From a virus (taxonomy: Duplodnaviria; Heunggongvirae; Uroviricota; Caudoviricetes): 6,522 nucleotides of DNA. The notes beneath the pieces are model-generated. The model made no database searches. It saw nothing but the letters and a program-made list of their open reading frames with translations, and was not told the DNA's origin. The translations under genes were made by a program, and so were the position numbers. The stretch is taken from the IMG/VR virus record IMGVR_UViG_2534681912_000007; one strand, 5' to 3'. Within the stretch, counting starts at the first letter, position 1, and every line of letters starts with the position of its first letter. Of the stretch, positions 1 to 5,471 are shown one piece after another.

Positions 1-80
1 TCATATTCGCCCTGACTTTCCAGAACCATACGGACTGCCCGTTGACGGACTTCAGGGGAAAAACGAGTATTTTTAGTCAT
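1..80 (-). CDS. IS3-family transposase OrfA, N-terminal 26 codons (5' partial in window, continues past position 1)
   Basis: The reverse complement of 1..80 translates without a stop to MTKNTRFSPEVRQRAVRMVLESQGEY. A Shine-Dalgarno-like AAGAGG/CAGG lies just upstream of the ATG. This N-terminus is recalled as characteristic of the IS629/IS1203-type OrfA helix-turn-helix protein. Confidence 0.7.
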   Translation of the reverse strand, partial: MTKNTRFSPEVRQRAVRMVLESQGEY

Positions 81-134
81 CCTGTTTACCTCTTTCTCAG
101 GAAGTTTAGTCTCCAGGATTCCCGGGGCGGTTCA
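1..134 (-). mobile_element. Left end of an IS3-family insertion sequence (IS629/IS1203/IS3411-like), partial; continues beyond window start
   Basis: Read on the minus strand from 134, the sequence is TGAACCGCCCCGGGAATCCTGGAGACTAAACTTCCTGAGAAAGAGGTAAACAGG followed by ATG at 80. It has the TG... terminus typical of IS3-family inverted repeats and matches my recollection of the IS629-group left end. The ORF that follows encodes MTKNTRFSPEVRQRAVRMVLESQGEY, recalled as the OrfA N-terminus of this IS group. Exact element identity needs an ISfinder comparison. Confidence 0.7.
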
Positions 135-330
135 GATATTTATTCCATGCCTCCAGCAACGATCTTTCTTCCTCCGTTGCGATTTCCAGATCTACAGCAT
201 CCTGCAGTGGCGCAATATACTCACTGAATTCCTGGATGTAGAACTGTGTGGTGACGGTCTTCCAGCCATTCGGCTCCTGCTGTATCGAAGCATACCAGGC
301 TATTTCAATATCGCTATGCTGCGGCAGCAT
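106..330 (-). pseudogene. Remnant of a second tail fibre assembly gene (tfa-like C-terminal domain), 5'-truncated and 3'-interrupted by the IS insertion
   Basis: The 74-aa ORF contains [29 protein letters not shown], closely matching the C-terminal part of the intact Tfa at 1110..1694 ([29 protein letters not shown]). There is an in-frame stop immediately upstream of the Met at 331..333. The IS terminus begins inside codon 66 at position 134, so the last 8 residues (NRPGNPGD) and the stop at 106..108 are encoded by IS sequence. Confidence 0.7.
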
Positions 331-338
331 TTAACCCC

Positions 339-367
339 TTGTAATTCATCGCCATAATTGATTTAAT
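339..367 (+). promoter_or_regulatory. Putative sigma70 promoter for the methyltransferase gene (-35 TTGTAA 339..344, 17-bp spacer, extended -10 TGaTTTAAT 359..367)
   Basis: Hexamer matches to consensus read directly from the sequence, in the AT-rich region upstream of the + strand ORF. An alternative pair is TTGATT 358..363 with TATAAC 381..386. Prediction only. Confidence 0.25.
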
Positions 368-386
368 TCACAAATAAAACTATAAC

Positions 387-1055
387 ATGGTGAAATCAAT
401 GAAAAAAAACACAGATGATGGGGCTAAAATTTACACACCACTTACCCTAAAGCTTTATGACTGGTGGGTTTTGGGAGTATCAAATCGGCTTGCATGGGGA
501 TGTCCTACAAAGGAACACCTTCTTCCACACTTTCTGGAACATGTAGGTAACAACCATCTGGATATTGGTGTTGGAACTGGGTTTTACCTTACTCACGTAC
601 CTGAGAGTAGTCTGATATCTTTAATGGATTTGAACGAAGCTAGCCTGAACGCGGCATCTACAAGGGCTGGGGAATCAAAAATTAAACATAAAATTAGCCA
701 TGATGTTTTTGAACCTTATCCCGCGGCGTTACATGGTCAATTTGATTCCATTTCCATGTTTTACCTTCTTCACTGCCTGCCTGGAAATATATCTACAAAA
801 AGCTGTGTAATACGCAATGCGGCGCAGGCCTTAACTGACGATGGAACTCTATACGGAGCCACAATTCTTGGCGATGGAGTTGTGCACAATAGCTTCGGTC
901 AAAAACTGATGCGCATTTACAATCAGAAAGGCATCTTTTCAAACACAAAAGATTCCGAAGAAGGCTTAACACATATACTCTCAGAGCATTTCGAGAATGT
1001 TAAAACCAAGGTTCAAGGTACTGTAGTAATGTTTTCCGCTTCAGGGAAAAAATAG
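387..1055 (+). CDS. Class I (Rossmann-fold) SAM-dependent methyltransferase, substrate unknown; moron-like cargo gene
   Basis: 222-aa ORF convergent to tfa. Motif I LDIGVGTG at aa 58-65, acidic post-I residue in LISLMDL (D81), motif II FDSISMFYLLHCLP at aa 119-132 and motif III LTDDGTLYGATIL at aa 149-161 give the canonical MTase order. No DNA-MTase catalytic motifs ((D/N/S)PP(Y/F) or PCQ) are present. The start may instead be ATG 399 (MKKNTDD...), which has GGTGA at 389..393 as a Shine-Dalgarno with 5-nt spacing. The gene is visibly AT-richer than the flanking tail genes. Confidence 0.75.
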   Translation: MVKSMKKNTDDGAKIYTPLTLKLYDWWVLGVSNRLAWGCPTKEHLLPHFLEHVGNNHLDIGVGTGFYLTHVPESSLISLMDLNEASLNAASTRAGESKIKHKISHDVFEPYPAALHGQFDSISMFYLLHCLPGNISTKSCVIRNAAQALTDDGTLYGATILGDGVVHNSFGQKLMRIYNQKGIFSNTKDSEEGLTHILSEHFENVKTKVQGTVVMFSASGKK

Positions 1056-1062
1056 CATCCAA

Positions 1063-1095
1063 CCGCAGCACGTTCTTGCTTAAGACGTGCTGCGG
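1063..1095. terminator. Perfect 11-bp inverted repeat (CCGCAGCACGT / ACGTGCTGCGG) with 11-nt loop between the convergent methyltransferase and tfa genes; possible bidirectional terminator
   Basis: Stem arms 1063..1073 and 1085..1095 are exact reverse complements. It lies 8 nt after the methyltransferase stop (1053..1055) and 15 nt after the tfa stop (1110..1112). On the minus strand the stem is followed by UUGGAUGCUAUUUUUU; on the plus strand there is no U-tract. Confidence 0.4.
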
Positions 1096-1109
1096 CATAA
1101 TCCCAATGA

Positions 1110-1694
1110 TTACTCCCTGACAGGGTTCGTAGGCCACTCAATATCAGGTGCAGTTGATGTATCAACACGGTTCAGCAACACCCGATACTTTTTCCAGGCT
1201 TCCAGCAATGAGGTTTCTTCCTCCGTTGCAATTTCCAGATCTGCAGCATCCTGAAGCGGCGCAATATGCTCACTGGCTACCTGCATCAGGTTGTTTTTTG
1301 TTTCTTCCGCCTCCCGGATCCGGAACAGTTTTTCTGCTTCCGTATCCTTCACCCAGGCTGTGCCGTTCCACTTCTGAAACTCCCCTTCCGGCGATAACCA
1401 GGTAACATTTTCCGGTAACGGACCGAGTTCAGAAATAAATAACTCGTCCCCTGACGCTACGTCATAAACCGTTTTCCCCCGATGGTCTTCAACGAGATGC
1501 CACGATGCCTCATCACTGTTGAAAACAGCCACAAAGCCAGCAGGAATATCTGGTGGTGCAATATCGGTACTGTTTGCTGGCAGACCTGTATGAGGCGGAA
1601 TATATGCGTCACCTTCACCAATAAATTCATTAGTTCCGGCCAGCAGATTATAAATTTTTATGGTCCGTGCTTGTTCACTCATTCTGAATGCCAT
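1110..1694 (-). CDS. tfa: Tail fibre assembly protein Tfa (lambda Tfa homologue, 194 aa)
   Basis: [78 protein letters not shown]... is near-identical over its full length to lambda Tfa as I recall it, with the same 194-aa length. The start ATG (1692..1694) overlaps the stf stop TAA (1694..1696) by 1 nt. Confidence 0.95.
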
Positions 1695-4600
1695 TATGCA
1701 AGCCTCACAATATAGTTAAATGCGATGTTTTTGACGGTGTTTTCCGCGTTACCCGCAGCGTTAACGGTGATGGTGTGTCCATGTGAACCAATCGCAACGG
1801 AGTGCGTATGCGCACCAATACCTACAGTATGTGCATGTGCGCCAGAACTTGCTGCAGTACCAGACAGCGAGTGGGTATGAGCACCTGCTGACTGTGTCTG
1901 AATACGTTGATAATACGATCTATAGGAAGAAGTCTCCGGGCTTACTTGATACTGTGAATTCTGGACATAAGTGAACCCACCGCCATCATAAAATGCTAAC
2001 GCAGAACCGCCGCCTCCTGGCCAACGAATACCATTACCATGAGTATGAACACCGGCAGACCCCGTAGAGCCACTCAGACTGTGCGTATGCGCCCCGGTGT
2101 TATTCGTGGATTTAGTGCCGTAATCAAACGACGATGTGGTTTTCGTCCCCAAATCCGTACTGGATGCGCTGGCGCTGTGGGTGTGCGATTTTATGCCGTC
2201 CTGTTCCTGAGACAATACGGCCCGGCCACTGGCGGGTTTGCCCTTGATTGTCCAGCCGCGCATATCTGGAATAACACCTGAAGGATAGGCAATAGCCAGT
2301 TTCGGATATGCTGCCTTATCAAACGTCTGCCCCTGCATGATTGCATAACCTGCAGGTGGTGTATCTGATGGCCACGGCAGCGGAACACCTGGCGGAAACG
2401 CTTCAATATTTGCCGAGCCGTCAAATTTTACGCCGTTAATTGTCCTTGCAGTTTGCAATTTGGTTGCTGTGCTTGCATTACCCGATAAAGATCCAGTGAT
2501 ACCACCACTCGCGTTTAATTTAGTTGCAATTGTAACATTGCCAGTATGGTTACTAATTATAAACGGCCTTAAGCTATTGTGCGTACCAAGACTGTTACCC
2601 GAATCTGTCAACATAAAATATGTGTTTGATCCATCATTTCGGATAAAGAATCCATAGTTGCCATAGGCAATACGCAGACCATTTGCTGACCTTGAAATAA
2701 CCTCACCAGCAGCAGTTAAACCACCTGAAAGAGTCCCTCCAGTTAATGCCAATGCCCCAATATTTGAAGGGGTCAATGTGATATTTGCACTACCATCAAA
2801 TGACACACCGTTAATCGTTCTGGCTGCCTGAAGTTTCGTGGCGGTCGCAGCATTACCTGTAGTGTTTTGATTACCGGTAGCGTTGACTCCAGGCAAGTTG
2901 ATATCTGCCGATCCATCAAATGCCACGCCCCCAATCTTACGTGCTGTCTTGATCTTGGTCGCAGTATCTGCGTTTCCGGTCAAATTACCAGTAACACTAC
3001 CACCAACTTTTAGTCCATTACCGATGGACACCAACCCTGATCTTAAGTTTATAGAGAATGGTCTTAATGAACCGATGTCTCCATTTTCCCCCTCCCCTTC
3101 ATTAGTCGGAATAAGATGAAGATGATCTTCGGAACGCCTAAAAATAAGGCCAAAGGCTTGGTTGAATATTCGAAGAGCATTTATCGTGCTGATTTTTAAC
3201 TGCCCTCCCATTGTGTCGCCAGTTTTTTGAACTGAACTATCTTTAACAGTTTTAACTGCCTTTGGCGTTGCCGCCAGCTTTTCACTGGTGCTGTTTGTTG
3301 CACTGCTGAGCTGTACTATCCCCTTTTTCGTCGTGCTCGCATCCTCCAGCGCCACGGCGGATGCAATATCCTCTGCCCGTTTTGCTGCTGTCTCGGCGCG
3401 CGTTGCCGCGGATTCAGCAGCAACTTTGCTCTGAGATGCAGCCGTCGCACTGCCTGCCGCCTCTGATGCTTTCGTTGTTGCTGTCGTGGCACTACCTTTC
3501 GCTGCTGACGCTTGTCTGGTCGCCTCATCTTTTGAAGCAGACGCAGATGATGCCGATGACGCCGCTGAACTGGCTGACGATGCGGCTGCCGCCTTAGAGG
3601 AAGCAGCATTGTCTGCTGAAGTCTTTGCATTTGTTTCAGAGGTTTTTGCTGCAGAAGCAGACCTCGCTGCTGCAGTGGCTTGCTCAGTGGCTTTGCCAGC
3701 CTTCGTTGTGGCTGTTGAAGCGGATGATGCGGCGCTTTCTGCCGATTTTCCGGCGGCGGTGGCACTGGCTGAGGCCTGCCCGGCACTTGTTGACGCGGCA
3801 CTGGCAGATAATGCAGCCGCTGTTTTTGAACCTGCCGCAGCTGAGGCGCTCTGTCCCGCTGCTGTTTCAGAAGACTTAGCGTTCGTCTCGGACGTTTTTG
3901 CCGCCTTCGCGGAATTTCCTGCCGCCGTTGCCGAGGAAGCTGCACTACTGGCACTTGATGATGCATTCGTTTCTGAAGATTTCGCTGCCTCTTTTGAGGC
4001 CGCCGCACCCCGTGCCGAGGTGGCAGCTTCTGACGCCTTCGTGGTCGCTGTGGATGCAGAAGTGGCTGCCGATTTTTGTGATGCTGCGGCATTCGTTTCT
4101 GACGTTTTCGCGGCACTGGCGCTGGTAGCTGCCGCGCTTTTTGATGACTCTGCAGCAGCAGCACTTTTTGCTGCTTCACGGGCCTTTGTCGATGCCGTTC
4201 CTGCGCTGGAAGACGCTGACTGAGCCGACGACGCGGCCTGTCCGGCTGACGTGCTGGCGGCACGTGCTGAGGCTGCAGCATCGGTTGCATGAGTTGCCGC
4301 CTCGCTGGCTGATGCACTGGCATCGCTGGCTGATTTTTTCGCGGCTGCCGTATTCTGTGCAACCGCGGAGGCGTTACGTGACACCTCTTCCACCATCTGC
4401 TCAAAGCGGCGCAGTGCCTCCGGTCGGACATCATCCTCCGTCATGGCACCGAGAAAATCATTCAGCGTACCTGGTCTGGAACCTTCATAGACGGTAATGG
4501 TCCCGGCATGTGAAGGCGGAAAACCTTCAACCAGCAGGGTGACGCTGTACTGGCCATGCTCAACATCCATGCTGTAACGTCCGGCTTCATCCGGATTTTC

Positions 4601-4871: not shown

Positions 4872-5471
4872 TCAGAAACGGTATCCGATACCAACAATAA
4901 ATGCATCCGTTCGCCAGTCGCCACTACCGGAACCTTCATAAGCAAGGTCAATGGTTACGGATTCGGTCGGGTTAAACTGCACGCCAGCCCCCCACGCCAG
5001 AGACGTGTTGCTGTGGCGACCGTCATCACTTCCGGTCAGCACATCGTGCGTTTTCCCCTTGTTGTCAGTTACGCGGAGATAATCCCCGGAGAAAGTCGAC
5101 ACACGGCTGTAAGCCACACCCACCATCGCATAAGCACTGAACCATTCATTCACGCGTACAGACGGCCCCGCCATCACGCTGAACCAGCGGTTACGCACGG
5201 AATCTTCATGCCAGCGGGTATCGCTGTAATGCGTTTTTTGCTCATCCTCAGCATTGGCATAACTGAAGGACGTAACCAGCCCCAGCGCGTCCGTAAACTC
5301 ATAACGGTATTTCACGTTAATCCCCTTCAGATCATCACTGCCGGGAACATCAGTACGGGCATGAAGATACCCCGCGCTCAGTGTGGACTGATGCTCAGAC
5401 GCCCACGCAGGCGCACCAGAGACAAACAGACAGACGACTGCGGACAAAATAACAGCACAAAATTTACGCAT
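4872..5471 (-). CDS. lom: Lom outer membrane protein (Ail/Lom family), 199 aa, with Sec signal peptide
   Basis: MRKFCAVILSAVVCLFVSGAPAWA|SEHQSTLSAGYLHA...WHEDSVRNRWFSVMAGPSVRVNEWFSAYAM...GIGYRF closely matches lambda Lom as recalled. It has an N-terminal hydrophobic signal with an AWA cleavage motif and a C-terminal aromatic residue typical of beta-barrel outer membrane proteins. A GAGAGGT Shine-Dalgarno precedes the ATG at 5471. Confidence 0.95.
   Translation of the reverse strand: MRKFCAVILSAVVCLFVSGAPAWASEHQSTLSAGYLHARTDVPGSDDLKGINVKYRYEFTDALGLVTSFSYANAEDEQKTHYSDTRWHEDSVRNRWFSVMAGPSVRVNEWFSAYAMVGVAYSRVSTFSGDYLRVTDNKGKTHDVLTGSDDGRHSNTSLAWGAGVQFNPTESVTIDLAYEGSGSGDWRTDAFIVGIGYRF

Follow-up and report, generated by a model that had tools for sequence, protein, structure and literature searches.

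IS629 is an IS3-family insertion sequence of E. coli and Shigella, of which IS1203 and IS3411 are treated as isoforms and whose sub-types lie 4-5% apart (PMC3271280). It duplicates 3-4 bp of its target upon insertion, and 62% of the copies in O157 lie in prophages or prophage-like elements (PMC3271280). Another described system close to the locus reported here is a three-part prophage module, found in most E. coli genomes, in which a tail-fibre-assembly (tfa) gene is followed by one for a methyltransferase and by a remnant of tfa. In K-12 the module stands beside appY/ompT and consists of a tfa gene, an opposite-strand class I methyltransferase gene and a C-terminal tfa fragment, which we take to be tfaD, ybcY and tfaX of the DLP12 prophage. 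In O157:H7 the 3' part of the same remnant, beside the same methyltransferase gene, carries ISEc8, an element of the IS66 family.

The DNA analysed here (hereafter the window, 6522 bp in all) is identical to the reverse complement of L004:1-6522, the scaffold JH768587.1 of E. coli H730 (GCA_000261405.1); a literature search on strain H730 found nothing relevant. It is the terminal 6522 bp of a scaffold contig, with position 1 (L004:6522/6523) abutting an assembly gap of 1067 N. The sequence-only reading of this DNA had placed an IS3-family element of the IS629/IS1203 group inside a tfa remnant at the window edge, and this proved correct: we put at roughly 96% the probability that the window ends in a single complete 1310-bp IS629, inserted in the 3' part of a non-functional tfa fragment that belongs to a lambda-like prophage at the ompW/yciE-trp locus, about 0.4 kb short of the right-hand prophage end. 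Both the element and the kind of place are already known, and the find is an ordinary one. In JH768587.1 the body of the element falls in the N gap; the whole element was studied in a sibling contig, L003, a gapless 725-kb ENA contig with the same locus and 99.48% identity to the window over 6522 bp. The features of the window are collected in Table 1.

Table 1. Features of the 6522-bp window, with the strand on which each is read and the evidence for it
Feature	Position	Strand	Evidence or detail
IS629, left 134 nt (IS positions 1-134)	1..134	-	100% identity to IS3-family transposase loci; equals L003:10197-10330
orfA, first 26 codons and 2 nt: MTKNTRFSPEVRQRAVRMVLESQGEY	1..80	-	ATG at 80-78; read from sequence
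Left terminal inverted repeat (IRL), 5'-TG start	94..134	-	41-nt arm, 78% complementary to right end in L003
Chimeric ORF, 74 aa	106..330	-	65 codons and 1 nt of tfa remnant, then 8 codons and stop from IRL
Target-site duplication, left copy, ATC (GAT on +)	135..137	-	ATC before IRL and after right inverted repeat (IRR) in L003 and L004
Native tfa remnant, insertion target, C-terminal fragment	135..330	-	Caudo_TAP PF02413
Class I SAM-dependent methyltransferase, cargo gene	387..1055	+	Methyltransf_12/23/25 matches, RefSeq
Intact tfa, 194 aa	1110..1694	-	Caudo_TAP at 151 bits
Side tail fibre, 1008 aa	1694-4720	-	ORFs, RefSeq name
lom	4872-5471	-	ORFs, Pfam families on record, RefSeq names
J, C-terminal part	5539 to window end	-	ORFs, Pfam families on record, RefSeq names

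The reverse complement of window positions 1-134 begins TGAACCGCCCCGGGAATCCTGGAGACTAAACTTCCTGAGAAAGAGGTAAACAGGATGACTAAAAATACTCG..., and from 134 the minus strand reads TGAACCGCCCCGGGAATCCTGGAGACTAAACTTCCTGAGAAAGAGGTAAACAGG and then enters the orfA start codon. Many complete E. coli genomes have loci, annotated 'IS3 family transposase', that agree with it at every base (134/134, E 4e-63), and 3,558 of the 5,426 complete genomes (approximately 66%) contain the same stretch at about 90% identity or more, 22,855 times in total, so that its identity as an IS is not a matter of chance. The element had also been taken as a hint of an enterohaemorrhagic E. coli or Shigella host background, but the group is so widespread, being present in two thirds of complete E. 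coli genomes, that the hint is a weak one.

In L003 the complete element occupies 10197-11506 (1310 bp), with ATC on either side. Its ends (10197-10237 and 11466-11506) form 41-nt imperfect terminal inverted repeats of the TG...CA type, which are 78% complementary and perfect over their outermost 14 nt (TGAACCGCCCCGGG). OrfA (108 aa) matches HTH_Tnp_1 at 49 bits and the N-terminal part of the NF033516 IS3 transposase profile at E 1.2e-11, under the whole-protein cut-off, while OrfB (295 aa) matches HTH_21, rve (DDE) and rve_3 as well as the NCBIfam profile NF033516 'IS3 family transposase' itself at 316 bits (cut-off 160). The two genes overlap in the -1 phase in this copy, the window showing only the first 26 orfA codons, and the ALIL pseudoknot RF01497 of Rfam (L003 10532-10648, 120 bits, gathering score 50) spans the overlap, just 3' of an A6 run that comes immediately before the orfA stop; for the O157 IS copy the RefSeq annotation includes a programmed frameshift. 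By analogy with the IS3 family, an OrfAB transposase would be produced by programmed -1 frameshifting at the A6 run, stimulated by the ALIL pseudoknot, and the element would transpose by a copy-out-paste-in route via a circular intermediate with abutted ends (bioRxiv 10.1101/2023.06.07.543989). Staggered cuts in the target, again as expected from the family, would then leave a 3-bp duplication.

The insertion site could be reconstructed from genomes which have the prophage without the IS. Window positions 135-1200 match more than 3,000 complete genomes, among them UTI89, S88, APEC O1, IHE3034 and 55989, which carry the empty site, and the best IS-free matches have 100% identity and stop exactly at 135. 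The UTI89 alignment shows the empty site as ...GGAATAAATATC followed directly by GGGTATTGTTGAATCG... (in short form, AAATATC and then GGGTATTG), with ATC present once. In both L003 and L004 ATC stands at both sides of the IS and the sequence 3' of the right-hand ATC resumes exactly where the empty site continues; in JH768587.1 this is seen past the 1067 N, where the IS resumes for its final 93 bp (...CCCGGGGCGGTTCA), right inverted repeat included, and gives way to ATC and then to GGGTATTGTTGAATCG.... The gene order downstream is the same as in IS-free UTI89. The event was thus a simple transposition, the IS lying between two copies of ATC with both flanks colinear with the empty site. An OrfB transposase gene, a right inverted repeat, a 3-bp duplication and related prophages lacking the insertion had all been named beforehand as the companions to be expected of such an element, and all were found.

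The stretch of IS expected to be unsequenced in JH768587.1 is 1310-134-93 = 1083 bp, near the 1067-N gap estimate. The cutting of the IS at 134 nt is an assembly artefact and no biological truncation, the short-read assembly having broken inside the repeat, and the IS629 repeat therefore explains why the contig, and hence the window, ends there. The H730 copy appears to be single and complete, judging from the gap size, from both junctions with their duplication and from the sibling L003 (34/6522 differences).

The target ORF is a tfa remnant, as had been proposed. It matches Caudo_TAP PF02413 at 42.2 bits (cut-off 22.1) over profile positions 75-111 of 131 only, the reconstructed 89-aa allele shares 81% identity, over its residues 27-89, with the intact Tfa (residues 132-194), and RefSeq treats the UTI89 counterpart as a pseudogene, incomplete and without the N-terminus; what is left of the gene is thus its C-terminal portion. 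The proposal that the IS terminus lands within codon 66 of this ORF and supplies its last 8 codons and stop was borne out to the base. Codon 66, at 135-133, is C/TG, in which C comes from the target and TG are the first two bases of the IS, and the IS also supplies codons 67-74 (NRPGNPGD) and the TAA stop at 108-106, whereas in the uninterrupted UTI89 allele codon 66 is CGG and the ORF continues to 89 aa. The exact 74-aa protein is encoded on 68 public contigs, one of its names being 'tail fiber assembly protein [Escherichia coli H730]' (EIG41586.1), and so the 74-aa 'tail fiber assembly protein' of public records is an artefact, a chimeric ORF whose tail comes from the IS.

On the minus strand the genes run in the order J (C-terminal part), lom, stf, tfa, methyltransferase (on the opposite strand), remnant and IS. 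Past the IS the remnant is completed by its final 24 codons, after which come a DUF4376 fragment and one of ompW, then yciE, yciF, yciG and trpA-E. The prophage is at the ompW locus and the ompW fragment is its right end (L001:7729-7854; L003:11698-12900), beside yciE/yciF/yciG and the trp operon. An IS629 is also present in a phage deposited in GenBank as PPompW_EH2201. A direct repeat of the tfa 3' end (135-237 and 1184-1286, 84% identity over 103 nt) brackets the methyltransferase gene; with the sequence past the IS counted in, it grows to 216 nt at 89.8%. This flanking by repeats of the tfa 3' end suggests that the methyltransferase gene arrived via recombination at the end of tfa.

The side tail fibre contains a long Ala/Ser/Thr-rich low-complexity stretch, especially at about 3300-4430, which gives rise to spurious long ORFs at 3316-4434 (minus strand) and 3486-4223 (plus strand). 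There is no Pfam match on record for this protein, and it differs from the fibre of UTI89, with which there is no alignment over 3272-4145 of the reverse-complemented window. A 45-aa ORF at 1000-1137 (minus strand), overlapping the 3' ends of tfa and of the methyltransferase gene, is probably not a gene; its RefSeq label is 'hypothetical protein' for UTI89 and, oddly, 'nucleocapsid protein' for K-12 RP437.

Several other explanations of the window edge were weighed against a complete, simple IS629 insertion. Only 134 nt of IS lie within the window and the contig stops there, as would also be seen with a solo end, the truncated relic of an IS, or with an assembly chimera of IS reads and tfa, but the same junction is present on 68 contigs from independent assemblies (NCBI drafts, ENA metagenome assemblies and Logan), the right junction with its duplication is on the same scaffold and the element is full-length in L003; these observations speak against a solo end or chimera, to which we give hardly any weight. 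The sequence-only reading had further raised deletion or inversion of adjacent DNA by the IS, with prophage cargo beyond it lost or rearranged. IS629 and its relatives do make deletions in O157 genomes (general knowledge; see the IEE discussion in bioRxiv 10.1101/2023.06.07.543989) and the far side of the IS is not visible from the window itself. However, the ATC is intact on both sides and the right flank is the exact continuation of the empty site in JH768587.1 and in the gapless L003, with downstream gene order identical to that of IS-free UTI89, and this duplication and colinearity rule out such an event at the locus, making it just as improbable as a relic. Since the IS is only about 0.4 kb inside the prophage end there was no cargo beyond it to lose, and no prophage cargo has been lost at this site. 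A third alternative concerns the name of the element. RefSeq calls the O157:H7 copy 'IS3-like element IS1203 family transposase', and as all three names are in use for isoforms of a single element (PMC3271280) it might be argued that this copy belongs under IS1203 or IS3411. It is only 96.1% identical to that O157 copy, a gap of about 4% which is the reported distance between sub-types, whereas it is 99.85% identical (1308/1310, with the same ends) to a mobile_element of the Stx2a phage record LC567824.1 whose annotation reads 'insertion sequence: IS3 family IS629'. Going by the GenBank annotation of near-identical copies, this is IS629 of the IS3 family, and either of the other names seems to us unlikely to be the better one.

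A different question is whether the 3' end of the tfa remnant is a preferred landing and recombination site, the insertions there being independent and site-preferring and not one inherited event. It could be argued for because junctions at the same nucleotide occur in two prophage contexts (stf-tfa-methyltransferase here, and the Rac-like context of L014 and L016), ISEc8 lies 29 bp away and breakpoints recur. Other contigs break off at ...AAATATC, directly in front of the IS, with 160 index blocks for the 65-aa truncated product, and in L014 and L016 (ends 3196/3195) the remnant is in the Rac-like order tfa, pin (invertase), ynaE, ynaM, methyltransferase, remnant. One name for the 65-aa product comes from Shigella sonnei. 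These contigs are compatible with the same insertion having been spread by prophage recombination, or with recurrent insertion. When complete genomes are aligned with the IS-free locus, the same three end points recur, query positions 396, 419 and 491 (L001:7095, 7118 and 7190), which lie 30-125 bp downstream of the IS629 site, and the protein cluster of the ORF has several alternative C-termini, but much of this pattern resembles the usual mosaic boundaries of prophages, here placed where tfa homology stops. We consider independent, site-preferring insertion doubtful. The earlier description of the region as a rearrangement hotspot fares accordingly in part: the nearby ISEc8 and the recurrent breakpoints speak for it, while a single IS insertion is by itself no proof.

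As for consequences, the simple insertion of IS629 is probably selectively neutral, because a pseudogene was hit, at its 3' end, and the site is downstream of the divergent methyltransferase gene and faces away from it; that gene is left intact. The idea that the IS drives the methyltransferase gene was dropped because a promoter and terminator scan of window positions 1-1200 gave no more sites than in shuffled sequence; nor did the scan reveal any site directed from the left inverted repeat toward that gene. The insertion thus carries little biological weight, being a textbook IS629 copy, probably neutral, in a prophage pseudogene. When 1200-nt and 80-nt junction queries were searched against 5,426 complete RefSeq E. 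coli genomes, none had the exact junction, and the three matches at a coverage of at least 80% were of 86-91% identity and unrelated; IS-free versions of the locus are found in ExPEC, APEC, EAEC and ETEC strains. Being on 68 draft and metagenome contigs and in none of the complete RefSeq genomes searched, the junction is a lineage marker.

Compared with the described systems, the element shows the same 1310 bp, TG...CA repeats, orfA/orfB overlap, ALIL pseudoknot, 3-bp duplication and prophage location as IS629 of E. coli and Shigella, and nothing of substance is different; only the insertion site is absent from the complete RefSeq E. coli genomes searched. The prophage module has the same gene order as that of K-12, at approximately 93% DNA identity, and the target ORF of the window is the counterpart of the downstream tfa fragment of K-12. 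In K-12, however, the methyltransferase gene is frameshifted, the upstream tfa is truncated and there is no IS, whereas in the window tfa and the methyltransferase gene are intact and the remnant carries IS629. In O157:H7 the ISEc8 in the remnant is of another IS family and inserted independently, 29 bp further 3' than IS629 (L002:5015-8720; L019:3420-5810), and in strain F8798 ISEc8 is itself split by an IS629 isoform of the IS1203 type.
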